47,376 bases of DNA from a virus: positions 1 to 47,376 of IMG/VR virus record IMGVR_UViG_3300029577_000022; one strand, given 5' to 3'. The notes beneath the pieces were generated by a model. The model was not told where the DNA came from. It did not search any database and was given only the letters and a program-made list of their open reading frames with translations. The translations under genes and the position numbers were made by a program. Of the stretch, positions 19,718-39,450 are shown in pieces (within the stretch, counting starts at the first letter, position 1; each line of letters starts with the position of its first letter).

Positions 19718-19744
19718 ATAAAGGTGTCATTTTACGGAGAATAC
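19718..19744 (+). promoter_or_regulatory. Element-specific promoter-like motif, site S5 (ATAAAG-N12-GGAGAATAC)
   Basis: Matches the bipartite consensus described in the findings. It is the weakest member. Confidence 0.35.
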
Positions 19745-19779
19745 TTATTATGTAAGGAAATGTATTTGTAAAGGTGTCA
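19719..19779 (+). repeat. Direct repeats TAAAGGTGTCA (19719 and 19769) upstream of the serine recombinase. Candidate res or operator subsites.
   Basis: Two exact 11-mers lie 50 bp apart. Confidence 0.5.
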
Positions 19780-19840
19780 ATTCTATTTACAGATATATCC
19801 GAAAAGTGACAAGTGTTTTACGAACAGAAAGGACAGTAAT

Positions 19841-20494
19841 ATGAAAAATGAAGTATGGGGATATGCAAGAGTTTCTACAAAAGAACAGAATCTTGCACGA
19901 CAAATTGAACAGTTAAAAGAGTTTGGAATATCTGAGAGAAATATTAAGTGTGACAAAATAAGCGGAAAGACATTTAATCGAATGGAATACAACGCATTAG
20001 TTGGAACAGAAACAACAGCACCAACTTTAAGAGAGGGAGATTTGCTTGTTATTGTCAGTCTTGATAGGTTGGGTAGAAACTATACGGAAATCAAGGAACA
20101 GTGGAACTATATTATCAATGTTATTGGAGCAGATATTGTTGTGTTGGATATGCCATTACTCGACACAAGGCAATCTGGTGATAATCTTGATAAAAGATTT
20201 ATTGCTGACCTGGTATTACAGATTTTGTCTTATGTGGCACAAAAGGAACTTGAAAACACAAGACGTAGACAAAAACAGGGAATGGATGTTATGCCAGTAA
20301 TCAATGGAAAGAAAACTTCTTTAAAGACAGGCAGACCAACAGGCAGACCAAACGCACAGTTTCCCGATAATTGGAAAGATTACTATGAAAAATGGAGACT
20401 AGGAGAAATGACAGCAACAAAGTGTATGGAAATACTGAATTTGAAAAGGTCAACATTTTATAAGCTGGTTAAGATTTATGAAAAGGATCTGTGA
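19841..20494 (+). CDS. Serine recombinase (resolvase/invertase family)
   Basis: VWGYARVSTKEQNLARQ contains the catalytic Ser motif, and there is a C-terminal HTH (RSTFYKLV). Confidence 0.85.
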   Translation: MKNEVWGYARVSTKEQNLARQIEQLKEFGISERNIKCDKISGKTFNRMEYNALVGTETTAPTLREGDLLVIVSLDRLGRNYTEIKEQWNYIINVIGADIVVLDMPLLDTRQSGDNLDKRFIADLVLQILSYVAQKELENTRRRQKQGMDVMPVINGKKTSLKTGRPTGRPNAQFPDNWKDYYEKWRLGEMTATKCMEILNLKRSTFYKLVKIYEKDL

Positions 20495-20567
20495 ATTTAA
20501 TACAAGGATGTAGAAATATAGAGAAACATTATATGAAGCATTTACCAAAGATGGGAGGCATAGACAG

Positions 20568-20795
20568 ATGAAAAGACAAGTAGCATATAAGCAAGGATAT
20601 AAAATTGTAATCTGTGGAAAATTTTATGAGGTGGCAGATACAAAGAGGATTTTACATTATGGAAATCTATCTCATATACCGACAGTACAAGAGGTATGGA
20701 ATAAAACAATAGGAATACAGTTAGCAGAAGAGAATTATAAAGTACATAGGAATAACGCATATAGCAGATTGAGAGGAAAAGCCCTTGAAGCATAA
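20568..20795 (+). CDS. Hypothetical protein
   Basis: 75-aa ORF with a GGGAGG ribosome-binding site. Confidence 0.5.
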   Translation: MKRQVAYKQGYKIVICGKFYEVADTKRILHYGNLSHIPTVQEVWNKTIGIQLAEENYKVHRNNAYSRLRGKALEA

Positions 20796-20885
20796 AGAAT
20801 CAAATAATCATAAGTGTATCAGATTTGTTATATCTCTGATTATACTTTGCGGTTTATTTTATTTATCGTGGAGGTGGAAATTATA

Positions 20886-21068
20886 ATGGATGAAATTTTT
20901 GAAAGTCAGGCTTTTTGTAATGGAGTTGCTGTAGGAATCAACCTTTATCAGCAAAAGGTTATTATGGCACATGAGAATAATGAAGCTATTAAGATTAATG
21001 GAGAATTATATTATATCCAAAGCGGAAAGGAACGATTGCAGGAAATGATTGATAAAATGCGTAAATAG
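20886..21068 (+). CDS. Small hypothetical protein (60 aa)
   Basis: ATG follows GGAGGTGG. It is the internal start of track ORF 20814..21068. Confidence 0.5.
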   Translation: MDEIFESQAFCNGVAVGINLYQQKVIMAHENNEAIKINGELYYIQSGKERLQEMIDKMRK

Positions 21069-21372
21069 CTTATCGAACCATATATCGCAAAATGCGTAAA
21101 TACGTGATTTTCCTATACTTTTTTGCTTAGGAAGTACGATAACCTACCTATTCACTAGGGATTAAATGACATCGTAAAAACTTTGTAACTACAATGTAAT
21201 TATAAATTGATATGCAAAATATTGAATTGCATATACAATTTGGATTTTCGCTGTAAGTACAATAGATTTTAATAATTTTTGTTGGAAGAGGCTTATCGTA
21301 AATAGAAAGCAATTTTTCAATGTAACCAGTAATGTTACAACAAAACCACAAAAAGAAAGAGAGGTCAACACA

Positions 21373-21750
21373 ATGAAAATAAACGTAGAAACAAAATTTG
21401 AAGTAGGACAGGAAGTTTTTCTTATTAAGAAACAGAAAAAAGTAATCGAGACAAAAGCTACCTGCGACATATGTTTTGGAACTGGTAGTATTTCATATAA
21501 AGGATATGACATGAGTTGTCCTAAGTGTCATGGAAATAGAAGCATTGTATTAGATTCAAAAGATAGGATGATATATGCAGTAGAAGATCCATGTAAAATT
21601 ATTAGCTGTAGATATATGATTACCCAAAAGGAATCTTGTTTATATTACAAAACAAGCGGTAGAAATAGTCTTGTTCCAGAAAATGAAATATTTGCCACAC
21701 AGGAAGAAGCAGAAACCAGATGCAACAAACTTAACAATGAGGTACAGTAA
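21373..21750 (+). CDS. Protein with a DnaJ-type CxxCxGxG zinc finger
   Basis: The motif CDICFGTGSISYKGYDMSCPKCHGNR is present. Confidence 0.6.
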   Translation: MKINVETKFEVGQEVFLIKKQKKVIETKATCDICFGTGSISYKGYDMSCPKCHGNRSIVLDSKDRMIYAVEDPCKIISCRYMITQKESCLYYKTSGRNSLVPENEIFATQEEAETRCNKLNNEVQ

Positions 21751-21752
21751 CC

Positions 21753-22118
21753 ATGATTAAAAATATAAAAAATAATGATATGAAAAGCTATGCAAAGAAA
21801 TTGAAAGCATATACCTATTACTCTTATATATCCTTAACAGCATGGATATTAAGCGGTGTAATACTTGCGGTTTTACTTATAACCGACATTAAATTACCAA
21901 TTATCAGTTTAATTGTGTTACTGGTAGCTTGCGGAATTGATTTGTATATATCTCATAAGAAGAAACAATTAGGAGTAGAGGAAGGAATTACACAAGCATT
22001 TCTTGTAAATGATGATACAGGCGAAAAAATCAAAATCAACATGCTAAAGATTGACAAGATGGAAGAGTTGTTAAATTTCTTAGGAATCGAATTTACGGAA
22101 AGCACTGTAGAGAATTAA
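21753..22118 (+). CDS. Membrane protein (two transmembrane segments)
   Basis: Hydrophobic segments ISLTAWILSGVILAVLLI and PIISLIVLLVACGIDLYI. Confidence 0.55.
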   Translation: MIKNIKNNDMKSYAKKLKAYTYYSYISLTAWILSGVILAVLLITDIKLPIISLIVLLVACGIDLYISHKKKQLGVEEGITQAFLVNDDTGEKIKINMLKIDKMEELLNFLGIEFTESTVEN

Positions 22119-22133
22119 ATAAGGAGGTACAAG

Positions 22134-22346: not shown

Positions 22347-22384
22347 CATCATAGCATTATAATAAGGAAGAAATAGGTTATATT

Positions 22385-22543: not shown

Positions 22544-22740
22544 ATAGAAAAAATCGGCAAGGTATGTTATACTCATTAGGTATTAAGGGCGTGATGAACC
22601 CTTGATATACATTTTTTGATCATAGGATTACCTATAGATTGAAATTGTTTTGTTGTTGAAAAGTCATGGCTGTAATAAGTCATGGCTTTTCTGTTTATGT
22701 AGAAAGAATTGTATTTGTGGAAATTCTGCAATCTGTTATA

Positions 22741-22806
22741 ATAGGTATTACATAGAAATATGAAAAATAAGATTTGCAAAGGAGATATATGTAATACATA
22801 TAAGCA
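22741..22806 (+). promoter_or_regulatory. Operator-like boxes B1 (ATAGGTATTACATA) and B2 (GTAATACATATAAGCA) flanking promoter-like site S7
   Basis: B1 recurs exactly at 23384. B2 matches 23388..23403 at 15 of 16 positions. Confidence 0.55.
22763..22790 (+). promoter_or_regulatory. Element-specific promoter-like motif, site S7 (AAAAAT-N12-GGAGATATAT)
   Basis: Matches the bipartite consensus. It lies 68 nt upstream of the 22858 start. Confidence 0.45.
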
Positions 22807-22857
22807 ATTTGAAATAATGGATATGCACTATATAGGTACTACATATAAATAATATAT

Positions 22858-23370
22858 ATGAGTGAAAGCAAAGTGTCGGATTCACAGAAACAAGCCCAGA
22901 AAAGATATGATAAGAAAATAAAGATGGTGTCAGTAAAATACACTCTTTCCGAAATGGAAGAATACACACAGCTAAAAGAATATCTGGAAAAGACAAATCA
23001 AAGTATGAACGGATTTGTTAAAGCTCTAATCAGAGCTTATTTTGAATCAGGTAAGGGTACAATATATGAAAGACCACTTGAAAAGAAACTTCATAATACA
23101 AGAACATACCATAACTACAAAAATATAACTATAGATGATATGCAACCTTTGATAGATTATTTTGGAGAAACACAAACACGGGCGTTATTATTCAAATATG
23201 AAAAAATTTTTAAAGATGCTGTTTTAGCTGAAAGAGAAGAGTATGAGACAAAATTATTGATATGGATGGAAGATGTTATGAAAAGAGTTGAACAAGGTGA
23301 GTTTGAGGATATGAAACGAAATGAAAAATACCATAAGTTAAAGGCTGAATTGATTGAATTGATGAAATAG
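22858..23370 (+). CDS. Putative ribbon-helix-helix DNA-binding protein with a C-terminal extension
   Basis: KKIKMVSVKYTLSEMEEYTQLKEYLEKTNQSMNGFVKALIRAYF matches the RHH pattern. The gene is flanked by the B boxes. Confidence 0.5.
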   Translation: MSESKVSDSQKQAQKRYDKKIKMVSVKYTLSEMEEYTQLKEYLEKTNQSMNGFVKALIRAYFESGKGTIYERPLEKKLHNTRTYHNYKNITIDDMQPLIDYFGETQTRALLFKYEKIFKDAVLAEREEYETKLLIWMEDVMKRVEQGEFEDMKRNEKYHKLKAELIELMK

Positions 23371-23383: not shown

Positions 23384-23403
23384 CATAGGTATTACATATA
23401 AGC
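23384..23403 (+). promoter_or_regulatory. Operator-like box B3 (ATAGGTATTACATATAAGCA)
   Basis: It combines the B1 and B2 sequences. It sits between the RHH gene and site S1. Confidence 0.55.
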
Positions 23404-23458
23404 ACTATATAAAGATTTTGAAATATAAGTCTTTGTATGGTGCTTTTTTAATTTGCAC

Positions 23459-23485
23459 AAAAATACAAAAACAAGTGGAGAATAT
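23459..23485 (+). promoter_or_regulatory. Element-specific promoter-like motif, site S1 (AAAAAT-N12-GGAGAATAT, exact 12-mer AGTGGAGAATAT)
   Basis: One of three exact 12-mer copies. It lies upstream of the tubR-like/tubZ-like genes. Confidence 0.55.
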
Positions 23486-23502
23486 TATGTTGAAAGGGTT
23501 GA

Positions 23503-23611
23503 TTGCAAAACATTTCATAAAAATTTTCTCATTCTATGGAAATCTGATAAGAGAATGTTTTGAAAAAAATTTTTGATGGTGTAGAAATTTTGCAAAAAAC
23601 AATTTTCAAAA
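23503..23611. repeat. Cluster of T4-(G/C)n-A4 palindromic boxes, including a perfect TTTTGCAAAA at 23588. Candidate centromere (tubC-like).
   Basis: The boxes are ttgcaaaa at 23503, ttttgaaaa at 23558, ttttgcaaaa at 23588 and ttttcaaaa at 23603. The AT-rich background lowers their significance. Confidence 0.3.
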
Positions 23612-23957: not shown

Positions 23958-24230
23958 TTGAAAGTCATTAGTTATTTGATACTTAGTTGGTTATATAGAA
24001 CTGATGCAAAAAGCAAAATTATAGCAGCCACAAGAAAAATGATACTTGATGGACTTGCAGAAGAAGGAACAAGTTATTGTGATAAGACCATTTATAACAA
24101 CCTTAGAAATCTGATACAAGGTGGGTATGTAAAAAATGGAATGCCAGTAGGTAATACATATACATATTACATTACATCTAAAGGTATGAATTGGTTAAAA
24201 GAAATGGAAGAGGAAGAAACGGAGGAATAA
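23958..24230 (+). CDS. Winged-helix DNA-binding protein, TubR-like paralog (copy 2)
   Basis: TIYNNLRNLIQGGYVKNG...TYYITSKG parallels copy 1. The TTG start lies 7 nt after GGAGGT, and ATG 23943 is an alternative. Confidence 0.5.
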   Translation: MKVISYLILSWLYRTDAKSKIIAATRKMILDGLAEEGTSYCDKTIYNNLRNLIQGGYVKNGMPVGNTYTYYITSKGMNWLKEMEEEETEE

Positions 24231-24235
24231 TTATT

Positions 24236-25339
24236 ATGAACAAAAAAATTAACGCAGGATTAAAAATTACAGGCATTGGATGTGGTCAGTGCGGAACACA
24301 GATTATTGCAGAAATCGAAAGAGCAGTAAATCTTCTTGATGGTGATAAGTCAAATCTTTCATTTATTGGAATTAACACAAGTACAGAAGATTTAGCATCT
24401 GTTAGCTTATCTCACAAGATTCATATCAATAATTCTAAGGGTGCTGCTTGCGATAGGGATAAGAGTACAGAAGCATTGGCAGAAGGCATTGATGAAATTT
24501 TAGAAGAATTACAGTCTTACATTATTGAGGATTCAATTATTTTTATTGCATTTTCATGTGGTGGAGGAACAGGATCGGCTATTGCACCTATTCTTAGTGG
24601 AATATTAAAGGAAATGGGATATTCGGTTGGTATGATTCCTGTATTGCCAGCAGATACAGAACCATTAAAGGTAAGAGATAATGCAAGATTGACATTTAAT
24701 GAGATTGATGAATTAAAGCCAGAAATGGGAAGTATTTTTATCCTTGACAATAATGCAAGCGACAAAATTACTGTAAATAAAGTGTTCGCTTCATTATTTA
24801 CAGGTATTCTTTGTATCAATAATAAATCCCAGGATGGAAATATGGATTTGGCAGAAATTGAAGCTTGCTTAAAGTGTCCGTCATTCTCTGTCATTACAAA
24901 AACCAATGCAACAAAGGGAACGACTGCAAATATCATTGATATTTTAAATAAGGATAACAATATTTTTGCAAAGAGAGAGGACAAGACTGTTACGATTATG
25001 GGTATTTCTGAAGCTGTATCAGCAAAGGAAAGTAAGATTGATATTATTCAGTTGCGTAAAGAGGTAGGAACAGCACCAACAGAATTTCATGGTTATCTGT
25101 CTGAATCAGAAGAAAATGTAATTATTCTTAGTGGTTTAACAATGCCATACAGTAGATTGGATTCAATGACAGATGCTATTGAGAAAGAAGCTGTGAATGT
25201 TCAAAACTCTATGAAAGCATTAACAGAAGTAAGAACTGCAAAATCATTAGATATATTTGGACAGAAGGCAGAGCCAGTTGTAGCACCAAAGAAGTCAAAT
25301 AGATTAGATGCACTAAAAGCAAGAAGAATCAGCAAGTAA
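24236..25339 (+). CDS. tubZ: Tubulin/FtsZ-superfamily GTPase, TubZ/PhuZ-like
   Basis: T1-like GIGCGQCGTQI and the tubulin signature SCGGGTGSAIAP are present. 367 aa. ATG follows GGAGGA. Confidence 0.75.
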   Translation: MNKKINAGLKITGIGCGQCGTQIIAEIERAVNLLDGDKSNLSFIGINTSTEDLASVSLSHKIHINNSKGAACDRDKSTEALAEGIDEILEELQSYIIEDSIIFIAFSCGGGTGSAIAPILSGILKEMGYSVGMIPVLPADTEPLKVRDNARLTFNEIDELKPEMGSIFILDNNASDKITVNKVFASLFTGILCINNKSQDGNMDLAEIEACLKCPSFSVITKTNATKGTTANIIDILNKDNNIFAKREDKTVTIMGISEAVSAKESKIDIIQLRKEVGTAPTEFHGYLSESEENVIILSGLTMPYSRLDSMTDAIEKEAVNVQNSMKALTEVRTAKSLDIFGQKAEPVVAPKKSNRLDALKARRISK

Positions 25340-27772: not shown

Positions 27773-27799
27773 AAAAAGTATTTTCTTAACGGAGAATAT
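27773..27799 (+). promoter_or_regulatory. Element-specific promoter-like motif, site S4 (AAAAAG-N12-GGAGAATAT)
   Basis: Matches the bipartite consensus. It is followed by a roughly 100-nt hairpin-containing leader before 27907. Confidence 0.5.
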
Positions 27800-28330: not shown

Positions 28331-28555
28331 ATGAAAAACTATGTATTTCAAATGCCGTTAGATCGGCTGACAGTTATAAAAGCGTTTGCAGTCGAAAAGT
28401 TGATGGAAAATGACAGAACAGTAATTTATCAGAATAAGTCTTTGAGAATGGCATTTGATAAAAAGGTTGTTCGAGTATTAGTTTTTCAAGAAGATGAAAC
28501 TATAGAACGAAAATTGTACAGATATTTCTATGAGACGGAGAAATTAAATAAATGA
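28331..28555 (+). CDS. Hypothetical protein (74 aa)
   Basis: ATG follows AAGGAG. It is an internal start of the track ORF. Confidence 0.5.
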
Positions 28556-28989
28556 AAACAGGAAAAGTTAAGTGGTTCAACGATGCAAAAGGTTGGGGAT
28601 TTATCACAGATGAAACAGAAAAGGATGTATTCGTACATTATTCAAGTATTCAGATGGAAGGTCGGAAGTCTTTAAATCAGAATGACATTGTGGAATTTGA
28701 AATTGGAGAAGGCACAACCGGCAGGACACAGGCGGTAAATGTCAAGAGAACTTCTAATAATAAGAAATACGATGACATGACACAAGCTGAATTAACAGAA
28801 GAATTTGTCAATATTATAAAACAGAATTATGAGAATGGAATATGTTTATTAGATTCTAATTATGAACTGATACAATTTGATCAAATCTTAGAGAAAGATA
28901 TTATTAAAATTGATGATGCAATTAGCATTGTGCGTAATTTAAAGAGAATGCCCAATTTTAAAGAATATTGTAAAGGTATGACTCAATAA
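28552..28989 (+). CDS. Cold-shock-domain protein with a roughly 75-aa C-terminal extension
   Basis: The CSD motif [50 protein letters not shown] is present. Confidence 0.8.
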
Positions 28990-28999: not shown

Positions 29000-29026
29000 A
29001 AAAATCAATCTCCGAGTGGAGAATAT
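29000..29026 (+). promoter_or_regulatory. Element-specific promoter-like motif, site S2 (AAAAAT-N12-GGAGAATAT, exact 12-mer)
   Basis: One of three exact AGTGGAGAATAT copies. Confidence 0.55.
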
Positions 29027-29271
29027 AGTATTAACAGAGATATTGTTGCAGTGAGACGAAGCAACCGACTATTGAAGCGAATAGTTACAATCGTTGTACG
29101 GAACGGACTCGTTGATGATACTACTAGAAATATATCAGTGAAGATGCTGATTACCACGAAACGGAATCACAATACCATTGAAGATAATGGTTATATATAG
29201 AACGGAATAACAGGCACATTACCTATTATTGGTGGTGTGCCTACATTAAATTGAAAAAGAGGTATAGCAAT
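29027..29271 (+). ncRNA. Long structured 5' leader candidate (about 245 nt)
   Basis: Hairpins gttgc..gcaac, actatt..aatagt and aggcaca..tgtgcct are present. AACGGA boxes lie at 29102, 29160 and 29201, plus an extra ACGGA at 29098. Confidence 0.35.
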
Positions 29272-29934
29272 ATGGAACAAAGAGAAATGAAGCTAAGACA
29301 ACAGTTAGGAAGACATGGTTATAAATTAAAAGGTGCAAACGAAAGATTCTTTGTTAAATGCACATATACAGACAAGGTAGCATCACCATTAGATGATAAT
29401 AAACAGCCAGTTTATATGACATTGGATGAAGTAAAAAAATGGCTGAACGACAGAACCAATGAAGAAAAGCAGAAGGAACAGCTATGGAAAGACAAGCTCA
29501 ATAAATATAAGAGCATTCTGAAATATCCACAGTATGCTGAGTGGTGCAAGGATGTTGTGTTTGATACTTTGAAGGAATATAAAGCAGTTATAAATGAAAA
29601 TATCGACTTTATCAAAGCAGAGGTATTTAATTCCGAAAGTGAATTATACGCTTTTGTGGGATATAACGTAGAAAATATTTTGGATGAACTACAGATTCAC
29701 AAATACGATATGTCAATGTCAGAGGAAATCAGAATTGCTTTTTCGGAGACATATTATAAAAAGTATGAAGAACTGAATGCAGATGTACTTGAAAAAGAAG
29801 TGGACGATGGAGAGTATATTTTACAGGATTTGGTAGGCGATGGCGAATTGACAGAGAATGATTTATTGGAAATTGCTTTCAATGACATTGGTGTTGATGG
29901 TCTGAAAAAATTTATTTTGAATGTGGAGGATTAA
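29272..29934 (+). CDS. Hypothetical protein
   Basis: 220 aa from ATG 29272. Confidence 0.55.
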   Translation: MEQREMKLRQQLGRHGYKLKGANERFFVKCTYTDKVASPLDDNKQPVYMTLDEVKKWLNDRTNEEKQKEQLWKDKLNKYKSILKYPQYAEWCKDVVFDTLKEYKAVINENIDFIKAEVFNSESELYAFVGYNVENILDELQIHKYDMSMSEEIRIAFSETYYKKYEELNADVLEKEVDDGEYILQDLVGDGELTENDLLEIAFNDIGVDGLKKFILNVED

Positions 29935-29962
29935 CAGTATGAAATCAGTAAAATTATCATAA

Positions 29963-30352
29963 TTGAAGTTTAAGGATTTGGGACTGGATATAAAGAAAAA
30001 TTTTCTTAATCCACCAAAATGTGAGTGTGAGTGTGGGTGTGATGAGTACGGTCTATTGAGATGTGATAATTCAAATAAATTACAGGACAATATTTGTCAC
30101 ATGGTTTGTGAGAGTGGTAAATATCCATGTGGAGTAGTGGTGTTAAGAAAAGACAATACGATTTTAATTGGATTTTCAGACAAAGAACAACCTGCATTAT
30201 TATGCGGATATAGAAGCTATGCTTTTAAAGACGTACCAAAAAAGCAGCAGTATTTATCAGTTGGAGAACTGATTACAAAAACATATGAATTAGAGCATTA
30301 TGGAGTAATGATTGAATTAGAGGATAATTTCTATCAGACCATAATGGAATAA
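29963..30352 (+). CDS. Cys-rich hypothetical protein
   Basis: CECECGCDEYGLLRC...CHMVCESGKYPCG. TTG start with no clear ribosome-binding site. Confidence 0.45.
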   Translation: MKFKDLGLDIKKNFLNPPKCECECGCDEYGLLRCDNSNKLQDNICHMVCESGKYPCGVVVLRKDNTILIGFSDKEQPALLCGYRSYAFKDVPKKQQYLSVGELITKTYELEHYGVMIELEDNFYQTIME

Positions 30353-30368
30353 ATGGGGGTGATGCACT

Positions 30369-30962
30369 ATGAAGCAATATGTCAATTTGGAAACTGTAGA
30401 TATGTTTAAAAATAAATCAATTGAAATTATGCCATTAACTGTATTAACAGGAGTGAATGGTAGTGGAAAAACAACAATTCTAAAAGCTATTGAAGATCAA
30501 TTCTCTAACACGAGACATTATAAATGGACTGGATTTTCTATATTTAAAGAACATTTTGAAGGGGAAAAAGGAGATATTCTTTTATTTGAGCAACCAGAAG
30601 CAGGACTCCATCCAAAATTTCAGCTTGCACTTGCAGATATTATACTTGCCTATGCTCAAGCTGGACGAACGGTTGTTGTAGAAACTCATAGCGATCATAT
30701 TATAAATAGATTGACAAGGCGGTTTATTGAGAAACAAGAGGTTAGAGATATACTTAAAATTTATTTCTTGAAACATGAGGCTGATTTAGAACAAAACGTA
30801 TTCGAAATTACAAATATCCATACTGATGATGTAGATGGATGTATATGTGATGATAAAGATTTTTTTTATCAGTTTGCAGATGAGACATTAGAAATAACTA
30901 GTGCAGGATATAAAAATTTGCAAAAGAAATGTAAAGGACATGAAAGACAAGAGATATTTTGA
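30369..30962 (+). CDS. Miniaturised ABC/OLD-type ATPase with a DUF3696-like tail
   Basis: Walker A GVNGSGKTT, Walker B/D-loop ILLFEQPEAGLHP and H-loop VVETHSDHIINRL are present. The tail reads DKDFFYQFADETLEI. Only about 35 aa separate Walker A from Walker B. Confidence 0.6.
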   Translation: MKQYVNLETVDMFKNKSIEIMPLTVLTGVNGSGKTTILKAIEDQFSNTRHYKWTGFSIFKEHFEGEKGDILLFEQPEAGLHPKFQLALADIILAYAQAGRTVVVETHSDHIINRLTRRFIEKQEVRDILKIYFLKHEADLEQNVFEITNIHTDDVDGCICDDKDFFYQFADETLEITSAGYKNLQKKCKGHERQEIF

Positions 30963-31032
30963 GACGGAACATTTCAAGATTGATTTTATCGAGTTAGATT
31001 AGGAGGAATGAGTTATTACAAGCGAAAAAGAA

Positions 31033-31203
31033 ATGTGTCCAGTGCGTTCACTGGCATTAGCAAATTATTTATGTGGTCACGGTTACGAAATAAAGAAAGT
31101 TATTGATTCTGAAAAGAATCCACAGTACAAAATATTTTTATTTGAGGACAATAAAGCTATTCATAATAGTATTACTACATATCTCACAAACAGGGAGGTG
31201 TAG
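31033..31203 (+). CDS. Small DUF5659-like protein (below the cutoff)
   Basis: MCPVRSLALANYLCGHGYEIKKVIDSEKNPQYKIFLFEDNKAIHNSITTYL. The frame is open from 31012, and an upstream non-ATG start near the AGGAGGA site is possible. Confidence 0.45.
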   Translation: MCPVRSLALANYLCGHGYEIKKVIDSEKNPQYKIFLFEDNKAIHNSITTYLTNREV

Positions 31204-31209
31204 GATTTA

Positions 31210-32355
31210 TTGACCAAAAGCAGCGAAGAAAATAGATTGTCACAAAAGGTCTTTCTATTAAATAATGTCATTAGAGATAAGACCATATCTGATAATGGAA
31301 TCTTGGTTTATTGCTATCTAAGAGCAATTCAAAGAACAGATATGAATTATTATCCAATATCAGTTGATATAATGGATTATTTCTTTCGACACACATTTGA
31401 TATTGAGTCAAGAGACAAGAAAAAATATGTAGATGGATTAAATGATTTGGAAGAACATGGTCTAATCCATAAAATCAACGAAAAGAAGTATAACTTTGAG
31501 TACGATTTAGAACCTATATATTTTGATCCAACGAAAACCAACAAGGAAAATAATTTATGGTTCACAGTAGTTTATACGGACGAATTAACCACAATTATGC
31601 AGATTGATGATAAGAAATCTAACGTTAGCAAAGCTAAATTGATTAGATATTTTGTGAACGTTGTCAGTACCTTCCGTCATGGAAAAAGCTGGACATTTGT
31701 ATTATCCAATGGAAAAGAAACGGATGGAGTTATAGGATTTTCTTCTATAGAAGTATTATCGAATATATCCAATATAAGCAAAGATACTGTATTGGCATAT
31801 AACAAAATTCTGGAAGAGAACAAGATTCTATATATTTATAGGGCAAACGATTTACTACTCATAGACAATGAAATATCTGGAATCACCAATACATATGGAA
31901 GATACAAATATAAGAAGTTCATCATTGATGAGGGTGAAGATCATAAAAAGGAATATGGTTATTGTCAATCAGTAGAGAGCATAAAGCACAAGACAGCAAA
32001 GACATCAAAGCGAAAGAGTCTGGGAGCAAAATATTTCAACTTGGTATCAGGAAATAAAATGTACGATAAAGAAACTATCATTGAGATATACAAATATGCG
32101 GTTGAATTTAATAAAAGACATGAAAACGATGGATATTGTGAAAACGATTTGAAAGATATTTATTTCTTTGACCAGTTCCCATTCATAACAGAAGATTGCT
32201 TGAAAAATAAGGACAAAGCAAAAAGACCATTTCCAATAGAAGAAAAAAGTAATGATGATATATGGGGAGAAGCTGATCCATTAGAGAATGATTTTAGCAT
32301 AGAGGAAATAATTGATATGCCAGGTATGAATGAAACTAAACATAATATAGAATAA
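31210..32355 (+). CDS. Putative replication initiator or organiser (RepA_N/DnaD-like N-terminus)
   Basis: The N-terminal QKVFLLNNVIRDKTISDNGILVYCYLRAIQ pattern resembles RepA_N-type initiators. This is weak evidence. Confidence 0.35.
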   Translation: MTKSSEENRLSQKVFLLNNVIRDKTISDNGILVYCYLRAIQRTDMNYYPISVDIMDYFFRHTFDIESRDKKKYVDGLNDLEEHGLIHKINEKKYNFEYDLEPIYFDPTKTNKENNLWFTVVYTDELTTIMQIDDKKSNVSKAKLIRYFVNVVSTFRHGKSWTFVLSNGKETDGVIGFSSIEVLSNISNISKDTVLAYNKILEENKILYIYRANDLLLIDNEISGITNTYGRYKYKKFIIDEGEDHKKEYGYCQSVESIKHKTAKTSKRKSLGAKYFNLVSGNKMYDKETIIEIYKYAVEFNKRHENDGYCENDLKDIYFFDQFPFITEDCLKNKDKAKRPFPIEEKSNDDIWGEADPLENDFSIEEIIDMPGMNETKHNIE

Positions 32356-32400
32356 ATTTCATTATTCAACAATGAACAATGATTAAAAAAATAATGGAGT

Positions 32401-32583
32401 ATGGATGCGATAGCAGCCATACGAAATTATACATTAAACCAAAAAGAAACGATACAAAAAAGATTTTCTTTAGTAAAAAGTATCTTTAGTAAGATAATCC
32501 TAAAATATGTCAAAAAACATACAAATAATCGGATGGTTGCTATCCTAAAATATGTAAGAAAATTGACAAATTTTAGGATGTGA
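32401..32583 (+). CDS. Doubtful small ORF overlapping a DNA repeat cluster
   Basis: The peptide repeats ILKYVKK/ILKYVRK mirror the DNA repeats, which include an inverted copy. The region is more likely regulatory DNA. Confidence 0.2.
   Translation: MDAIAAIRNYTLNQKETIQKRFSLVKSIFSKIILKYVKKHTNNRMVAILKYVRKLTNFRM
32497..32579. repeat. Iteron or operator-like repeats: ATCCTAAAATATGT at 32497 and 32542, plus inverted ATTTTAGGAT at 32570
   Basis: Exact 14-mers lie 45 bp apart, and a TTGACA hexamer sits at 32563. Confidence 0.6.
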
Positions 32584-32615
32584 GGAAATCAGATAGAAGA
32601 AGGAGAATATTTAAG

Positions 32616-33257
32616 ATGAAAGTAGAAAATTTAACAGTAGGCAATATCTATTATGTTTCAGTTACAGATTATAAAGGAATAGCAACTTCTTTTAAGGTTG
32701 GGAAGTTAGTAGAAATTGTTAATAAAAGTAGTGTAATTCTTGAGGATAGAAAAGGAAAACAATTTAAGTGTGCAGTAAAAAAATTACATAAAACAGCAGA
32801 TAAGGCAGTTCAGACTAAAAAAGGAAAGCAGTTAGCAAAACAGTATATGGCTGAATTGAAGCAAAAAGAGGAAGAAAGTCTGGTTGATAAGAAAATACAA
32901 AGCAGAATAAAACAGTTGGGAAAATCAATATATGTAACAATGGTAAAAAATAAATACATTGTTAAAGGTTATGAGCAATCAATATCTTTTCGTACAGTAG
33001 AAGAATTAAATGCATGGATAGATACCGAACTTGCAAAATTTGAGATTATCAAAGCAGAAATATTGAATAATGGGTATAAGCATTTATGTGTAACCTGTAA
33101 AGATGGACATAAGGAATACTACACCATTATCAATATATCATTCAAGAAATTTGAAATATTTTGTAAGCATTTCAGAGGAAACAGCAAAGACCTTGAGAAT
33201 GAAAATTTATTGATGCGTGAGGATGTAAGAGGTCTTAAATTAAGGATTCATAAATAG
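32616..33257 (+). CDS. Hypothetical protein upstream of clpX
   Basis: 213 aa from the ATG after GAAGGAG. Confidence 0.55.
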   Translation: MKVENLTVGNIYYVSVTDYKGIATSFKVGKLVEIVNKSSVILEDRKGKQFKCAVKKLHKTADKAVQTKKGKQLAKQYMAELKQKEEESLVDKKIQSRIKQLGKSIYVTMVKNKYIVKGYEQSISFRTVEELNAWIDTELAKFEIIKAEILNNGYKHLCVTCKDGHKEYYTIINISFKKFEIFCKHFRGNSKDLENENLLMREDVRGLKLRIHK

Positions 33258-33269
33258 AAGGAGATTTTA

Positions 33270-34496
33270 ATGATGGCAAATAAAAAGAACGAATTTTGTT
33301 GTATGTGTGGAAGCTCAAAAGATGAGGTAGACAAGCTGATTAGAGGAAAATATGGTTACATCTGTGATAGCTGTATTTCTATTGCAAGCGGATTACTCAA
33401 CGATGAAGAAGAGGAATTTGTCACAGATAATATGCGGCTTGCTACACCATCACAGATTAAGGCACATTTAGATCAGTATGTTATTGGACAGGATGAGGCA
33501 AAGAGAACATTAGCAGTTGCAGTCTATAATCACTATAAGAGATTAAAACAGAATAAAAAATCAGATGTTGAGATACAGAAGTCCAACATTTTAATGATTG
33601 GTTCAACAGGTAGTGGAAAGACATATCTTGCACAGAGCCTTGCAAAATTTTTAGGTGTTCCTTTTGCTATTGCTGACGCTACCTGTTTAACTGAGGCTGG
33701 ATATGTCGGCGAAGATGTTGAAACCATGTTGCGTACACTTTTACAGAATGCAAACTATGACATTGAATCAGCACAGCGAGGAATTATCTATATTGATGAG
33801 ATAGATAAGATTTCTCGTAAAGGCGAAAATATGTCAATCACTCGTGATGTATCTGGTGAGGGAGTACAGCAAGCACTTCTTAAAATCATCGAGGGTACAA
33901 TATCAGAAGTGCCAGTAACAGGCAGTAGGAAACATCCACAGGGAGAGACAATAAAGATAGATACATCTAACATACTTTTCATCTGTGGTGGAGCTTTTGA
34001 TGGAATTGATAAGATTATTGGCAAGGAAGAGACACATAACAGCATTGGATTTGGTGCTAATGTTGCCGATAAGAAAGAATCAATTACCGATTTGTCAAAG
34101 GTTGAGCAGCATGATCTTGTTAAGTATGGTCTTATGCCAGAACTTATAGGCAGACTTCCTATTATTACCGCATTGAATCCGCTGTCAGAGGAAGATTTGG
34201 TACATATTCTCACAGAGCCGAAAAATGCTATTACAAAGCAGTATCAAGAATTGCTGTCTATGGATGGTGTGAAACTGGAATTTGAGGATGAAGCATTGAG
34301 AAAGATTGCGGAGTTGGCTATTCAGAAGAAAACCGGTGCAAGAGGATTACGTTCTATAATCGAGGGTTCTATGCAGAAGATAATGTTTGAAATTCCCGAT
34401 ATGTCAATAGCAAAGAGAGTTATTGTGACTGTTGCTTGTGTAGAAGGAAAAGAGGATGCATTGGTGTATGGTGCAAGGAATAAGAAGATAGCTTAG
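33270..34496 (+). CDS. clpX: ClpX-type AAA+ unfoldase, full length
   Basis: C4 zinc domain CCMCGSS...YICDSC, Walker A GSTGSGKT, pore loop AGYVGEDV, Walker [13 protein letters not shown] loop NSIGFGAN, and the sensor region [10 protein letters not shown]. Confidence 0.9.
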
Positions 34497-34518
34497 TACC
34501 ATTTAGTGCTAAGTCATA

Positions 34519-34538
34519 TGCGTCCATTTGGACGCAAT
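34519..34538 (+). terminator. Hairpin gcgtcc-attt-ggacgc after clpX
   Basis: 6-bp GC-rich stem. The 16-mer atgcgtccatttggac also occurs inverted at 12617..12632. Confidence 0.4.
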
Positions 34539-34588
34539 TGGTAATTTACTGACTACGAAATCGTGGCAAGTTAAGAAAGGAATGAGAT

Positions 34589-35539
34589 ATGTCGTTAAAG
34601 CAAGAATGTATTGATATGATAAATTTGATAATAAAGCCATTACAAGATGATGCAACATATTACACATTGGAAGAAGATGTATTTGTGGATATATGTGGAA
34701 AGACAGGCGAAGATATTACATATACATTATGTGAAGATTGTGAAAATTGCAATAAAGACTGTAAATATAAGAATGAAAACATAAAAGTTGATATATCCTT
34801 TTGTGATTATGCTACAGATTGCATACGAAATTATGTTTTTGGGAAAAATGCAGTTGATTGTAAAGGTGTTAGTGTAATAAGAAATCGAAAACAACTTATG
34901 GAAGAAATGTTCTCATTGAAGAATGAGCTGGAAACATATAAAAACTGGTATGCAGAATTTGGAGAGCGTTACAATGAATATTTGAAGTATGCAAAACAAT
35001 TTGCAGAAGATATTAAAGAAGAATATCTGTTTTTTGGAATGATTCAGACGGAAATATTACCAATAGTTTTTCATACAAATCATGCTTATTATGATGGAAA
35101 AATCAATTATAGTACATTAGGAAATCTTCATATAGCAGAAAAGCAGAATGTTATCAATGTTTTTTGTTGTATGGAAAATGAAGAAGAAACGAAACGTACA
35201 ATTAGACATGAGGTGTTACATTACTTGCTTTATATTGCAGGTTTAAAATATCAAGATGATAAAGCAATCTTCCATTATTTATGTGGTAAATATGATGCCT
35301 ATGCTTATAAGAAAATGGATGCTACAGAACAAGAATTATACAATCGACTAATTAATGGGATAGAAATGTTAGATAGTATATCAAAAGGACAGAAGGAAAT
35401 AGAAGATAATTACAATTCTAATTATATATGTATGCTCTTAGCGGTAAGCACAGATGAAAATGATCCTATATATGGTGCACTTTGTAAGAATGGTAAAGAA
35501 ATATTACAACTATTTGATTTGAAAAAGAAGGTAGGTTAG
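34589..35539 (+). CDS. SprT-like / HExxH zinc metallopeptidase candidate with a Cys-rich N-terminus
   Basis: RTIRHEVLHYLLYIAGLKYQDDKAIFHYLCGKY contains the HExxH motif. The N-terminus reads CEDCENCNKDCKY. Confidence 0.5.
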   Translation: MSLKQECIDMINLIIKPLQDDATYYTLEEDVFVDICGKTGEDITYTLCEDCENCNKDCKYKNENIKVDISFCDYATDCIRNYVFGKNAVDCKGVSVIRNRKQLMEEMFSLKNELETYKNWYAEFGERYNEYLKYAKQFAEDIKEEYLFFGMIQTEILPIVFHTNHAYYDGKINYSTLGNLHIAEKQNVINVFCCMENEEETKRTIRHEVLHYLLYIAGLKYQDDKAIFHYLCGKYDAYAYKKMDATEQELYNRLINGIEMLDSISKGQKEIEDNYNSNYICMLLAVSTDENDPIYGALCKNGKEILQLFDLKKKVG

Positions 35540-35563
35540 TTTCGGAAGGAGAATATACATTAT

Positions 35564-36262
35564 ATGAATACATTTACAGTAACTACAGGAAATAAGAAAG
35601 AAACAGAACTAAAGGAATTTACAAGGCTGTTTGCATTACATGATATGTGGTGCAGACAGTATTACAATACTGTGACAAGCATATTTGGAAAGTACAGAAA
35701 AATTGATGATTGGTCACAGGATGAACTTATGAAAGCCGCTCTATGCGGTGTAAAGTATATGAATTCTGTGATTGAAATTGAGGCTGTAACTCATAGGGTG
35801 GATAATACATATCAGACACCGTTTGAAGCAAAGCAAACAGCCTTTAAACTGATAGATGCCTTATTTGGTATTATCGGTCGTATCAAACTGAAAAATCTGA
35901 TTAAGATATTTCCGATAGATAAAATCTACGATGGCGATAAATATGAATGCAAGGATTACTTTTTCACAATGGATGTTCTGAAGGAAAAAGGATTGGACAA
36001 TGCGGTTGGTCGTGATGGTGTATTCGATCTTATGTGGGATTATGAGAACAGAGATTTGAGAGAGTTTACAGTATTCTATATGAGCTGTATGAGTGCGATG
36101 TATCAGAGTCAAACTGGTGTTAGTTTTGCTGAAAAATTTTGTGAGGACAATTGGATTGGTACATATCATGTGGATCGTGAAAATGGCATCATAGTTAATA
36201 ATCAGACTGGAAAAATTGCAAAATTGAGCAATAAGCCCTCATTTATGCAGATTGTGAAGTAA
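35564..36262 (+). CDS. Hypothetical protein
   Basis: 232-aa ORF with a GAAGGAG ribosome-binding site. Confidence 0.55.
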   Translation: MNTFTVTTGNKKETELKEFTRLFALHDMWCRQYYNTVTSIFGKYRKIDDWSQDELMKAALCGVKYMNSVIEIEAVTHRVDNTYQTPFEAKQTAFKLIDALFGIIGRIKLKNLIKIFPIDKIYDGDKYECKDYFFTMDVLKEKGLDNAVGRDGVFDLMWDYENRDLREFTVFYMSCMSAMYQSQTGVSFAEKFCEDNWIGTYHVDRENGIIVNNQTGKIAKLSNKPSFMQIVK

Positions 36263-36472: not shown

Positions 36473-36500
36473 AAAAAGTTTCTTCCTAAGTGGAGAATAT
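36473..36500 (+). promoter_or_regulatory. Element-specific promoter-like motif, site S3 (AAAAAG-N13-GGAGAATAT, exact 12-mer). A tandem partial copy AAGTGGAGAG lies at 36504.
   Basis: One of three exact AGTGGAGAATAT copies. It lies about 97 nt upstream of the polymerase-like gene. Confidence 0.55.
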
Positions 36501-36596
36501 ATTAAGTGGAGAGCAGTGTAAACATAACTTAGTAGAATAGAGAGGTGTGTTATTATAGGAAAGAAGACTATAAACTATACAAAAGAATTAAAGCCA

Positions 36597-39398
36597 GTGT
36601 ACATAGAGTCAATGCAAGCAAATCAAGTGTATATAGATGCGTTAAAAGATGAGGGCATTGTCATTCACAAGATAAAAGATGAATGGGTAGAATTGAACAA
36701 GGTATCTACTAGAAAAGCAGTACTTGCAGATAGCTTATTTCTTAGATTTATGGATGAAAGTATTACAAGAATTGGTGGTAAATTTAGCAAGGACTTCATT
36801 ATATTAAAGTTTGATTATGATGCTGAATATAAAATTAATGGTGGAGAACCCCAAAAGATAAAGAAAGACGATTTAAGAACATATTACTATACGAATGGAG
36901 TGACATTTACTTCTGAGGTCAAGGACACAAAGAAGAGGAAACAGGCAAAGGAAGATGAAAGATGTCATCCAATACATTATAAGATGCTTATGCGCTCCCC
37001 TGGTAAAGCAAAAGATGGAGAATGTGTATTTATTAGGGATAATCTGTATCATAAAGCTATAAATTTTTTGACTATGGGTTTATACGACATAATGGATGAG
37101 CAATCAAAACAGAATCCAGATAAAATATTTAAGATAGTCGAATTATCAGCATATCTTACGTTAACAACAGCATCTGCCAATGGTTATATAAGGATTCCTT
37201 GGAATAGAATACTTGTTGTTCCAGATGAGGAAGTTTATTCCAAGCCACAAAAGGCTGTAATTGTAAGCAATAAATCTGTGTCATATACATATGATGAAAA
37301 AGAGTTTTTTATTCATTTTGACGATTCACATATTGAAGAACTTATTAACAAGAAGGGCTGTACATTTGATAAGAATAAATCAATCAATGAAAATCTTAAA
37401 TACATTGAGAAGACAAAGGAAGCTCTTAAAGATAATGGTATTAGATGGAATGGAAACTATGGTCATTCAGAGATAACTAAAAAAGAAGAAATAAGACAAG
37501 AATGTGATGCAAAATATGTTTCTGATGAGAGGGTAAAAAATATTCTGTGGGACGGAATGGGATTAATTGATGAATCAATTTTTCCTAAAAATATGAATGG
37601 ATTTATATACTGTAGGTCACATTTCTTCAAGAGTTGTTTGTTCTGTGGAAATATTCAAGAATTTTTCAGAGACTATTGTGCGGAAAATGGAATTGACTAC
37701 AATAGTTTTACTACTGAGAAAATTGATTTATTTGGAAGAAAACTAAGCTTATCTAATATTGATGTTGTTATTACAGATAAATCACTAAAATGGTTGAAGT
37801 TTGTTGATATGATGGGAGGGACGCAAAAAGAAGCGTTTAAATTTTATAAAAATTATATGAAAGAACATGATAATTGGTTTACGATTGTAAAGACAGCTCA
37901 TCCTAGTAAATGGGGAGGTATGCAGTTAATGGCTTATCAAATGAATAATTCACTGCCTACTACAGATGAAGAGATTCTTTCCCGAATTGCAGAAGATTCA
38001 GTTGATTATATTAAAGAGTTAAAGAAAACAACGGATACAGCATATTTACAATATCTTAATCAAAAGAAAAATAATTTCAATATTAATGAAGTTATTTTGG
38101 CATTGGTAAAATGGAATCCTGATTTTAGGAGGACAGCTTTTTTTAGGGATAAAAAGACTAAAGATATAAGCAAACTGAAAAATGAATATTTTAAACAGGG
38201 AAGATTGCTACAGAATGGGGACAATCTTACAGTTATGGGAAACCCGATTGCTTTATTAATGAAAGCAGTAGGTGGAAATCCAATAGAAGAAAATATTTTT
38301 GAGGTGGAAAAGGATGCAATTCAATGTTATACAGCAAGGTTTAAAGATGGAGAAAAATTAGCCGCTTTTAGAAGTCCACATAATTCTCCGAATAATATTC
38401 TACATTTTCATAATGTCTATTCAGACAAATTATCCAAGTACTTTGCAAATTTAGGACGAAATGTGATTGTGATAAATATGGTTGGAACAGATGTACAAGC
38501 TAGAGCCTCGGGAATGGATGAAGACACCGACTTTGTTTATACAACAAATCAACCAGACCTTGCGGAACTTGCGAGAAAAGCTTATACAAATTATCCGACT
38601 ATCATCAATGGTGTGGCAGAAAAGGGGAATAGTTCATATCATTTTAGATTAGAAGATTTTGCACAAATGGATAATCAAATTGCAACAGCACAGCAATCTA
38701 TTGGCACCTCTACAGATACAGCGCAATTAGCCTTGAGTTATTACTATGATGAGGGAATGGATGAGGGGCAAGATGGGGAGGAATTGAAGAAATGTTTTGT
38801 TATATTATCTGTAATTGGTCAGATTAGTATTGATCTTGCTAAAAAGGAATTTGATATAGATGTAGTAAACGAAATTAATCGTATTAAAAGACTACCATGT
38901 ATGAAAGGTAAGGATATACCTGAGTTTTTTGCAAGTACAAAGAAAAGTCGAAATAATAAAGAATTTAATGAAGAAGAAATTCGCTCGATGAATTGTCCTA
39001 TGGATATAATTGCTAGAAATATAGATAGTAGAGTTGTGGGACAAGCTATGGGTGTAACAAGACTTCCTATATCAAAATTTCTTAATAGCAACATTAAAGG
39101 CAAGGGAAATAAATATAAATGGAAAAAATTTATAGAAGCGTCAGAAGTGTATAATAGGTCAATAAAGTATATTGAACAACACAAAACTCAATATACCAAA
39201 AATAGTTACATAGATTTAAAAATGGACTGTATGAGTCATTTTTTGAATTGCACAAACAATAATTTAGATCAAGAGACAGTTATGTTGTTGGTAAAATATG
39301 CTTTTAGTAATAATAATTCAGATGTATGCCAAACAATTTTAAACTTCCTTTATATGAATAATCGTGATAAATTTCTAAATTGTTTTGTGAAAAAGTGA
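36597..39398 (+). CDS. YonO-like single-subunit RNA polymerase candidate (two-barrel, eukaryotic-RdRP-related family)
   Basis: LAAFRSPHNSPNNILHFHNV...RNVIVINMVGTDVQARASGMDEDTDFVYTTNQ parallels the RdRP/YonO pattern R-P-x-x-x-P-x-x-I ... V-I-V-F ... S-G-G-D-L-D-G-D. The upstream WDGMGLIDESI and SAYLTLTTAS...ILVVPDEE resemble earlier conserved RdRP blocks. The start is uncertain (GTG 36597 or ATG 36612). Confidence 0.55.
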   Translation: MYIESMQANQVYIDALKDEGIVIHKIKDEWVELNKVSTRKAVLADSLFLRFMDESITRIGGKFSKDFIILKFDYDAEYKINGGEPQKIKKDDLRTYYYTNGVTFTSEVKDTKKRKQAKEDERCHPIHYKMLMRSPGKAKDGECVFIRDNLYHKAINFLTMGLYDIMDEQSKQNPDKIFKIVELSAYLTLTTASANGYIRIPWNRILVVPDEEVYSKPQKAVIVSNKSVSYTYDEKEFFIHFDDSHIEELINKKGCTFDKNKSINENLKYIEKTKEALKDNGIRWNGNYGHSEITKKEEIRQECDAKYVSDERVKNILWDGMGLIDESIFPKNMNGFIYCRSHFFKSCLFCGNIQEFFRDYCAENGIDYNSFTTEKIDLFGRKLSLSNIDVVITDKSLKWLKFVDMMGGTQKEAFKFYKNYMKEHDNWFTIVKTAHPSKWGGMQLMAYQMNNSLPTTDEEILSRIAEDSVDYIKELKKTTDTAYLQYLNQKKNNFNINEVILALVKWNPDFRRTAFFRDKKTKDISKLKNEYFKQGRLLQNGDNLTVMGNPIALLMKAVGGNPIEENIFEVEKDAIQCYTARFKDGEKLAAFRSPHNSPNNILHFHNVYSDKLSKYFANLGRNVIVINMVGTDVQARASGMDEDTDFVYTTNQPDLAELARKAYTNYPTIINGVAEKGNSSYHFRLEDFAQMDNQIATAQQSIGTSTDTAQLALSYYYDEGMDEGQDGEELKKCFVILSVIGQISIDLAKKEFDIDVVNEINRIKRLPCMKGKDIPEFFASTKKSRNNKEFNEEEIRSMNCPMDIIARNIDSRVVGQAMGVTRLPISKFLNSNIKGKGNKYKWKKFIEASEVYNRSIKYIEQHKTQYTKNSYIDLKMDCMSHFLNCTNNNLDQETVMLLVKYAFSNNNSDVCQTILNFLYMNNRDKFLNCFVKK

Positions 39399-39422
39399 CA
39401 AAAAACAATGCTATTTTTTGTT

Positions 39423-39450
39423 AAAAATTCAAAAAAGTGTAGGGAAAATA
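39423..39450 (+). promoter_or_regulatory. Element-specific promoter-like motif, site S6, a degenerate member (AAAAAT-N13-GGGAAAATA)
   Basis: Matches the bipartite consensus. It shares TCAAAAAAGT and AAGCATTTTCAATA with the region upstream of 36597. Confidence 0.4.

Follow-up and report, generated by a model that had tools for sequence, protein, structure and literature searches.

Which polymerase transcribes the genes of a mobile element that encodes both a sigma factor and a homolog of a single-chain RNA polymerase? This question is raised by IMG/VR record IMGVR_UViG_3300029577_000022 (positions 1–47,376; "the window" below means this whole stretch of DNA), a ~48-kb integrative element of Lachnospiraceae type, a mobile element of gut bacteria. 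Several of its gene blocks are preceded by a bipartite motif that consists of two conserved blocks, AAAAA(T/G) and (G)GAGAATAT, separated by an unconserved spacer of 12–13 nt (consensus AAAAA(T/G)-N12/13-GGAGAATAT). The motif is genuine, with four solid members and not the seven that a first-pass annotation of the same DNA had proposed. We favor, with modest confidence, the reading that these four sites, probably one at 19736 and possibly one at 22781 form a single promoter class, read by the host core polymerase together with the sigma factor of the element.

The first-pass annotation considered three exact copies of the 12-mer AGTGGAGAATAT to be beyond chance. These copies are found exactly where it placed them (23474, 29015 and 36489, all on the + strand); 0.01 copies are expected, and none of 100 shuffles reaches three. 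The pattern AAAAAK-N12/13-GGAGA has five matches versus 0.5 expected, all five of them intergenic and on the + strand. Motif discovery in intergenic DNA, which the annotation had recommended as a check, arrives at the same pattern: when all dyads of two 5-mers and a spacer are counted in the 7 kb of intergenic DNA, AAAAA-N13/14-GGAGA comes out first, occurring in five gaps, with a null maximum of four gaps in 30 shuffles. An exact scan of IMG/VR for GTAAAAAK-N12-GGAGAATAT returns 75 stretches, of which only 7 belong to relatives; at the scale of the database, the pattern by itself is thus not diagnostic.

Besides the 12-mers, four related sites had been listed, as well as an A-rich hexamer in front of each of the seven, at a distance of 12 nt or, in two sites, 13 nt. 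All of these are present at their positions, the distance being 13 nt at 36492 and 39442 and 12 nt in the other five. Membership was assessed by a leave-one-out analysis, in which a two-block weight matrix was built with each site omitted in turn and the omitted site was ranked among 94,657 positions on both strands. Sites 23477, 27791, 29018 and 36492 each rank first; 19736 ranks 18th, 22781 ranks 215th and 39442 ranks 1234th. On these ranks, the four core sites stand, 19736 is a probable member, 22781 a weak one, and 39442 is rejected. The box of the latter is also unconserved, reading AAGAAAAATA in two related loci (L002 and L005) and ACAAAAAACA in a third (L003). The sites therefore span 19.7–36.5 kb, and not 19.7–39.5 kb as first described.

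The anatomy of the motif was derived from a comparative set of the window and related loci (L-numbered; 459 kb together), searched with a hit threshold of at least 15.5 bits. Equal frequency on the minus strand, which the first-pass annotation had named as an outcome that would speak against a promoter class, is not what this set contains: its 40 hits all lie on the gene strand, with 0 on the opposite strand. Across 19 distinct instances, positions −18 to −13 (AAAAAT/G) are conserved at 63–89% and positions +2 to +7 (GAGAAT) at 89–100%, and neither the spacer nor the sequence from +10 onward rises above background. The two conserved blocks (−18 to −13 and +1 to +9) with a constrained spacer between them match the architecture of sigma-70-family promoters. 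A TATNNT-like sequence, said to follow the box, is only half borne out: a TAT lies inside the conserved box, but the three bases from +10 onward are unconserved. Read as a −10 hexamer, the box carries the A at position 2 and the T at position 6 in the four core sites (GAATAT), but not both at 19736 (GAATAC) and 22781 (GATATA). All six sites (the four core sites, 19736 and 22781) are intergenic, on the + strand and co-directional with the genes, 68–245 nt upstream of gene starts. The proposal of a −35/−10-like geometry that is not of sigma-A type is thus supported by orientation, intergenic position, the location of copies right behind terminator hairpins, the block/spacer/block profile and the persistence of both boxes in relatives where the surrounding sequence is not homologous.

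The three 12-mers are intergenic and head the blocks that had been assigned to them, i.e. the tubR/tubZ-like genes, the 29272 block and the polymerase-like gene. Site 23477 lies directly 3′ of a terminator-like hairpin (23400–23445) and upstream of a PadR-like/TubR-like gene (23663) and TubZ (24191–25339; Pfam Tubulin, 5.8e-17). In L014 and L018, both boxes of this site are kept and the flanks have changed. A 29-codon open reading frame (ORF; 23487–23576) opens 1 nt past the box, and the 90 nt past the box are conserved in relatives. Because the frame is lost in L014 through a deletion of 1 nt, this conservation may not reflect a peptide; the conserved stretch may instead be a DNA or RNA element, perhaps a TubR-binding region. 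Site 27791 heads a block ending in a cold-shock-domain gene (28552–28989) and has orthologs at L001:1485, L002:965 (with a different spacer), L003:3215 and L035:4605. Site 29018 heads the block 29251–36262 (AAA ATPase, ClpX-like gene), with orthologs at L007:20098 (GGAGAACAA), L035:5040 (AGAGAATAT), L078:488 and L111:3999. In promoters of the 29018 type (29009–29022; ~950 in L002; ~20085 in L007), a TCTCC in the spacer pairs with the GGAGA of the box to form a 5-bp stem with a 4-nt loop, a feature that the other members do not have. In the 334-nt gap that precedes the YonO-family polymerase gene, 36492 is the only promoter-like site of the + strand.

Of the two lesser sites, 19736 overlaps both a sigma-A-like match (GTGTCA-16-TATTAT) and a direct repeat, TAAAGGTGTCA; no specific footprint is seen there because the whole region is conserved (L006, L007, L012–L022, L028). 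The repeat (19720–19782) flanks the box, with the ATAAAG hexamer belonging to its upstream copy. Since the repeat could serve a recombinase or a regulator ahead of the resolvase/invertase gene, the membership of 19736 is ambiguous. At 22781, L012 and L013 keep the box and the hexamer, with diverged sequence downstream.

Table 1. Motif sites, look-alikes and other features of the window, followed by the versions of the polymerase-upstream promoter
Feature	Position	Strand	Sequence	Remarks
Core site 23477	23459..23485	+	AAAAAT-N12-GGAGAATAT	
Core site 27791	27773..27799	+	AAAAAG-N12-GGAGAATAT	107 nt upstream of gene 27907
Core site 29018	29000..29026	+	AAAAAT-N12-GGAGAATAT	10 nt past stop of gene 28552-28989
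Core site 36492	36473..36500	+	AAAAAG-N13-GGAGAATAT	
Probable site 19736	19718..19744	+	ATAAAG-N12-GGAGAATAC	96 nt upstream of gene 19841-20494
Weak site 22781	22763..22789	+	AAAAAT-N12-GGAGATATA	68 nt upstream of gene 22858-23370
Rejected site 39442	39423..39450	+	AAAAAT-N13-GGGAAAATA	
Look-alike	32602..32610	+	GGAGAATAT	Shine-Dalgarno; ATG 5 nt downstream
Look-alike	35548..35556	+	GGAGAATAT	Shine-Dalgarno for ATG 35564
Tn916-type integrase	2062-3255			
Minus-strand module	12.4-13.9 kb	-		
Five TATGTACCCATA copies	13928..14047	.		Over divergent sigma-A-like promoters
Sigma-70-family factor	14781..15359	+		192 aa; proposed motif reader; Pfam Sigma70_r2, TIGR02937
Resolvase/invertase	19841-20494			
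ClpX-like ATPase	33270			
YonO-family single-chain RNA polymerase homolog	36597..39398	+		933 aa; phrog_8308
Covarying hairpin	39473..39529	+	loop TGAAAAGACCGTAGGCTGAGTAG	23-nt conserved loop 39491-39513; head of late region
Tape-measure protein	from 40304			Runs off window end
Polymerase-upstream version, window			AAAAAG, spacer tttcttcctaagt, box GGAGAATAT	
Polymerase-upstream version, L003			CAAAAT, spacer cggaaacagaac, box GGAGAATAT	
Polymerase-upstream version, L078			CAAAAT, spacer cacattccagat, box GGAGAATAT	
Polymerase-upstream version, L035			CAAAAT, spacer caggatggaagc, box AGAGAATGT	

More telling than strand counts across homologous loci is the promoter upstream of the polymerase gene. 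It occurs in four versions (Table 1) that keep both boxes, with unrelated spacers and unalignable flanks: MAFFT is unable to align these regions between the window and the L003 and L035 groups, which means that the flanks are unrelated. Three of the four versions are immediately preceded by a terminator hairpin, and such hairpins also directly precede site 23477 and the copies in L003, L004, L035 and L011. Where the polymerase is only 59% identical to that of the window (L035), orthologous sites of the 27791 and 29018 types are kept, with GGAGAATAT and AGAGAATAT as their boxes. On one contig (L003 plus L013), the sigma factor is 100% identical to that of the window and the polymerase only 70%, and the motif is kept.

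The sigma factor that we propose as the reader scores 31.3 bits against PF04542 (Sigma70_r2; cutoff 24) and 47.8 bits against TIGR02937 (cutoff 42.9) in its region 2. It has 1430 homologous proteins (E ≤0.001), typically of 193 aa and mostly from Lachnospiraceae and gut metagenomes. A profile of this family finds 3mzy, a sigma-H, as its best solved relative (E 2e-4). None of the named subfamilies accommodates the protein, as its equivalog scores for SigH, SigK, SigI and FliA are 20–38 bits versus cutoffs of 185–415. Being roughly equidistant from these four in NCBIfam, and with 3mzy at only E 2e-4, it is best described as a putative orphan sigma that weakly resembles sigma-H. A 365-aa GmrSD_N (DUF262) gene follows the sigma gene immediately in every locus examined (14781–16469 in the window; L006–L011, L024–L029), and the two look like a conserved module. 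In most loci, an ArdC-N/MPTase gene lies upstream of the sigma gene on the opposite strand; the window, L028 and L029 do not have it there.

The sigma gene is part of the early operon, downstream of a sigma-A-like promoter region covered by putative operators. Here, between the minus-strand module and the early operon, the TATGTACCCATA array (one of the five copies is inverted; a sixth lies at 18342) overlies the promoters TTGACT-18-TATAAT on the − strand and TTGATA-17-TAATAT on the + strand. The TATGTACCCATA copies are probably repressor operators, and 13928–14047 is presumed to be a lysis/lysogeny switch that would release the early operon together with the sigma gene.

From the sequence we infer the promoter function of the sites, the sigma that reads them and the temporal order of the genes, as follows. 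Derepression at the TATGTACCCATA operators would allow host sigma-A polymerase to transcribe the early operon (14.05–19.3 kb), including the sigma gene. Subsequently, the sigma factor of the element would bind the host core polymerase and fire the motif promoters, in which AAAAA(T/G) would act as the −35 element, GAATAT inside GGAGAATAT as the −10 element and the preceding GGA as an upstream extension. The middle units expressed in this way would be the recombinase, the 22858 gene, the TubR/TubZ partition block, the cold-shock block, the ATPase/ClpX block and the YonO-family polymerase gene. The YonO-family enzyme would then presumably transcribe the late region via a different signal, in the 39.4–40 kb gap. 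The first-pass annotation had left the choice of reader between the sigma factor and the YonO-like enzyme. Its first option is the one we favor, given the sigma-70-family architecture of the motif, its sigma-H-type −10 element and 3mzy as the best solved relative of the protein; its second we disfavor, for reasons given below. An early-to-middle relay fits the position of the sigma gene in an operon behind an operator-covered, sigma-A-like promoter.

Several points weigh against this assignment. The tie between the motif and this particular sigma is made through co-residence and a weak family resemblance, and the NCBIfam scores of the protein to SigK, SigH, FliA and SigI are similar and all far under the cutoffs. 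In three loci with sigmas that are ~70% identical (L024, L026, L027), the 10 kb downstream contain neither a copy of the motif nor, by eye, an obvious substitute. The motif is therefore not common to the whole sigma family, or it has changed in those loci. Upstream of the polymerase gene, L036 and L037 (60% polymerase identity) and L111 (40%) have no version with the A-hexamer. Furthermore, the related loci are homologous, so that strand counts and conservation are not independent samples, and the 19 instances of the conservation profile were picked from the window and its relatives with the model itself, which makes the conservation values of the boxes partly circular and leaves those of the spacer and flanks unaffected.

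The resemblance to sigma-H raises the possibility that a host alternative sigma (sigma-H or a relative) reads these promoters, which would tie the middle genes to a transition-phase or sporulation programme. Sigma-H promoters in Bacillus and Clostridia have a −35 element RNAGGAWWW, a spacer of 11–12 nt and a −10 element RNNGAATWW (PMC8510167). In the four core sites, GGAGAATAT fits this −10 element at 9/9 positions, with one mismatch at 19736 and no fit at 22781. The 11–12 nt between the two 9-mers of the motif equal the sigma-H spacing, and among solved structures a sigma-H is weakly closest to the sigma factor of the element. In addition, two full consensus matches occur on the + strand in intergenic DNA, at 3808 and 20709, versus 0.25 expected (P ~0.017). 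However, every core site has AAAA where AGGA is required. As this −35 feature was looked for and is not there, the motif falls outside the sigma-H promoter class. The element also has its own sigma in an upstream operon, an orphan whose SigH equivalog score is 31.7 bits versus a cutoff of 294.8, and this reading assumes that the host has sigH. We regard a host sigma as an unlikely reader. As for the two full RNAGGAWWW-N11/12-RNNGAATWW matches themselves, the one at 3808–3837 overlaps the Shine-Dalgarno sequence of gene 3842, and the one at 20709–20737 precedes gene 20814 by 100 nt and occupies a gap without the main motif.

SigF-type forespore promoters combine a −35 element GYATA, 14–15 nt and a −10 element GGnnAnAHTR (PMC11599450). 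The motif shares with these an A/T-rich spacer and a GG placed two turns before an A/T-rich −10. It differs by a T for A at position 7 of the −10 element, by a −35 block unlike GYATA and by its spacer geometry, with 1–2 mismatches in the −10 element and no −35 match. Both the SigF-type and the sigma-A consensus fit the motif worse than that of sigma-H.

It is improbable, in our assessment, that sigma-A reads the sites as promoters with a poor −35, in which TATNNT from box position 7 would be the −10 element and GGAGAA the binding site of an activator encoded by the element. Activator-dependent activation of this kind is known from the late promoters of phage phi29. In three core sites, GGAGAA is indeed followed by TATTAT, TATAGT or TATATT, and 19736 overlaps the GTGTCA-16-TATTAT match. 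The bases that such a −10 would require are not conserved, though: +10 to +12 vary, and the last T reads T, A, T, T, A and C across versions. No TTGACA-like hexamer lies 16–18 nt upstream, and the place of the −35 is taken by a conserved A-tract unlike TTGACA. A scan for sigma-A promoters (TTGACA, 16–18 nt, TATAAT) yields no match that overlaps a core member and no + strand candidate in three of the four gaps holding core sites; the only overlap is the 9-of-12 match at 19736. Judged by its letters, the motif is not a sigma-A or SigF promoter, nor is it equivalent to the YonO promoter, P_YonO.

Still less would we expect the sites to have no promoter function and to act instead as protein-binding sites (for a regulator, as a TubR centromere or for a recombinase) or as an RNA signal (ribosome binding, standby or processing). 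GGAG is the core of a Shine-Dalgarno sequence, and two further exact copies of GGAGAATAT, at 32602 and 35548, are true Shine-Dalgarno sites; both are without an A-hexamer. At 23477, an ATG 1 nt past the box opens the 29-codon ORF, and an inverted repeat (TCTCC...GGAGA) is found at 29018 and in L002 and L007. Yet the boxes at 27791, 29018 and 36492 are not followed by a start codon, and the ORF at 23487 is broken by the frameshift in L014. A start 5–10 nt downstream with a conserved ORF is found only at the two look-alikes and at no member of the motif. The inverted repeat is missing at 23477, 19736 and in L003, and a second conserved block at a fixed distance of 12–13 nt would have no role. 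Recombinase sites, tubC iterons and nut-like RNA sites were each considered and rejected: the copies are direct, non-palindromic and dispersed over 17 kb, not arrayed like tubC iterons or recombinase sites, and share no hairpin.

The YonO-family polymerase enters the argument both as a target of the motif and as a conceivable reader. Its family membership follows from profile-level homology, since both this protein (E 2e-74) and YonO of phage SPbeta (E 0) belong to phrog_8308; a pairwise BLASTP comparison of the two is not significant. By eye, a DEDTD sequence lies ~45 residues past RSPH and may be compared with the metal-binding DxDxD motif of the catalytic double-psi beta-barrel fold. The AlphaFold model (pLDDT 70; <50 in region 566–650) is uninformative in the catalytic region, and a Foldseek search of the Protein Data Bank (PDB) with this model, low-confidence in that region, gives no match at E ≤0.001. 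The gene is listed from GTG 36597, and the window lacks an ATG, GTG or TTG at the start position of its relatives (36528–36600). The N-terminus of the relatives, MAKSKKIDYSKRLKPIYIES, which begins with a canonical ATG, corresponds in the alignment to IIGKKTINYTKELKPVYIES of the window; 24 codons before the GTG there is an in-frame TAA, and GAGAGG precedes ATT ATA. Translation probably starts at a non-canonical ATT/ATA near 36552–36557.

In SPbeta, YonO transcribes one long late operon from a single start site that lies past yonO, and the sequence that it recognizes is undefined (PMC5467207). The element resembles SPbeta in the protein family and in the order of polymerase gene, long non-coding gap and late/structural genes; it differs in that the motif does not lie past the polymerase gene, in having six sites versus one YonO start, and in its link of a sigma factor to a motif, which is not reported for SPbeta. 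That the motif sites are the promoters of the YonO-family polymerase is very improbable: the element does encode such a protein, and with the SPbeta promoter undefined (PMC5467207) a comparison of sequences is not decisive, but the polymerase gene is itself headed by a copy and would have no way to start, the bipartite geometry is that of sigma-dependent promoters, the six sites precede middle genes and the polymerase gene itself, in contrast to the single start past yonO in SPbeta (PMC5467207), the one site beyond the polymerase gene (39442) is not a member of the class, the yonO region of SPbeta (45 kb; NC_001884, 50–95 kb) has no model hit of at least 12 bits, the contig with the 100%-identical sigma and the 70%-identical polymerase keeps the motif unchanged, and the gap past the polymerase gene holds a different, far better conserved element.

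This latter element is a covarying hairpin (Table 1) that lies ~30 nt downstream of 39442 and is much better conserved than the 39442 box. In seven sequences, 5 of the 14 stem pairs are compensatory; L111, with a polymerase of only 40% identity, retains the loop on a completely different stem (ATGAAGAGA/TCTCTTCAT). Each of the ten loci holding the region (the window, L001–L005, L035–L037 and L111) has a single copy of the loop motif, located on the gene strand and ≤100 nt past the polymerase stop, and no other copy is found in 1.5 Mb. The hairpin is not in Rfam, its loop motif is not in SPbeta (NC_001884, 50–95 kb), and a search of Rfam with the 39.35–40.35 kb gap returns a chance-level match only. 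It stands outside the motif family and is a candidate late promoter or leader.

Combining this hairpin with the favored reading of the motif as promoters of the element's sigma leads to a three-tier relay, which we offer tentatively, as possible rather than probable. In such a relay, host sigma-A polymerase would transcribe the gene of the orphan, sigma-H-like sigma, whose −35 specificity would have shifted from AGGA to AAAA. The sigma would serve six middle promoters including that of the YonO-family gene, and the YonO-family enzyme would start late transcription at the stem-loop 39473–39529, or under its control. If this is true, a YonO-type polymerase would for the first time have a recognition element defined by sequence, namely this stem-loop with its invariant loop of 23 nt.

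Bacillus phage SPO1 has a sigma cascade in which gp28 and then gp33/34 act with their own promoter consensus. The element shares with SPO1 a sigma gene in the early operon and a non-sigma-A bipartite consensus in front of later blocks on one strand. In contrast to SPO1, its regulon includes the gene of a second, non-canonical RNA polymerase and it has no recognizable capsid genes; the consensus sequences and sigma families are unrelated as well. A phage with a distant sigma and a distant polymerase (MT835469, 176 kb; sigma 28% and polymerase 27% identical) does not contain the motif. The recurrent intergenic 10-mer of this phage that was followed up, TATGAATGTA, lies mostly in coding sequence and was dismissed.

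As to the element as a whole, relatives (L002, L035) show the tape-measure gene followed by homologs of window 762–1669, Tn916-type xis and int genes and host DNA, a gene order that makes the window circularly permuted with respect to the integrated form. Besides the genes of Table 1, a GmrSD_N protein, TubZ and a cold-shock-domain protein are recognized. No capsid, portal or terminase genes are recognized in the ~48 kb, though tape-measure and TubZ genes are present. The element may be an incomplete phage; a complete phage, a satellite or a plasmid-like integrative element are the other options. Nucleotide searches of 19–40 kb against annotated phages and plasmids, and scans of the window with Rfam (gathering scores) and for tRNAs, give no match.

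Redirecting host RNA polymerase by sigma factors of mobile elements is a known strategy. We rate the motif described here as a putative promoter class for a widespread sigma family that had no earlier promoter assignment. It suggests how sigma-H-type −10 recognition may persist while −35 specificity changes. For uncultured elements of this kind, the consensus offers a handle for annotating transcription units. It would also place the gene of a YonO-type polymerase inside a sigma regulon, and this regulon, together with the downstream hairpin, makes recognition by YonO-type polymerases, open since 2017, directly testable.

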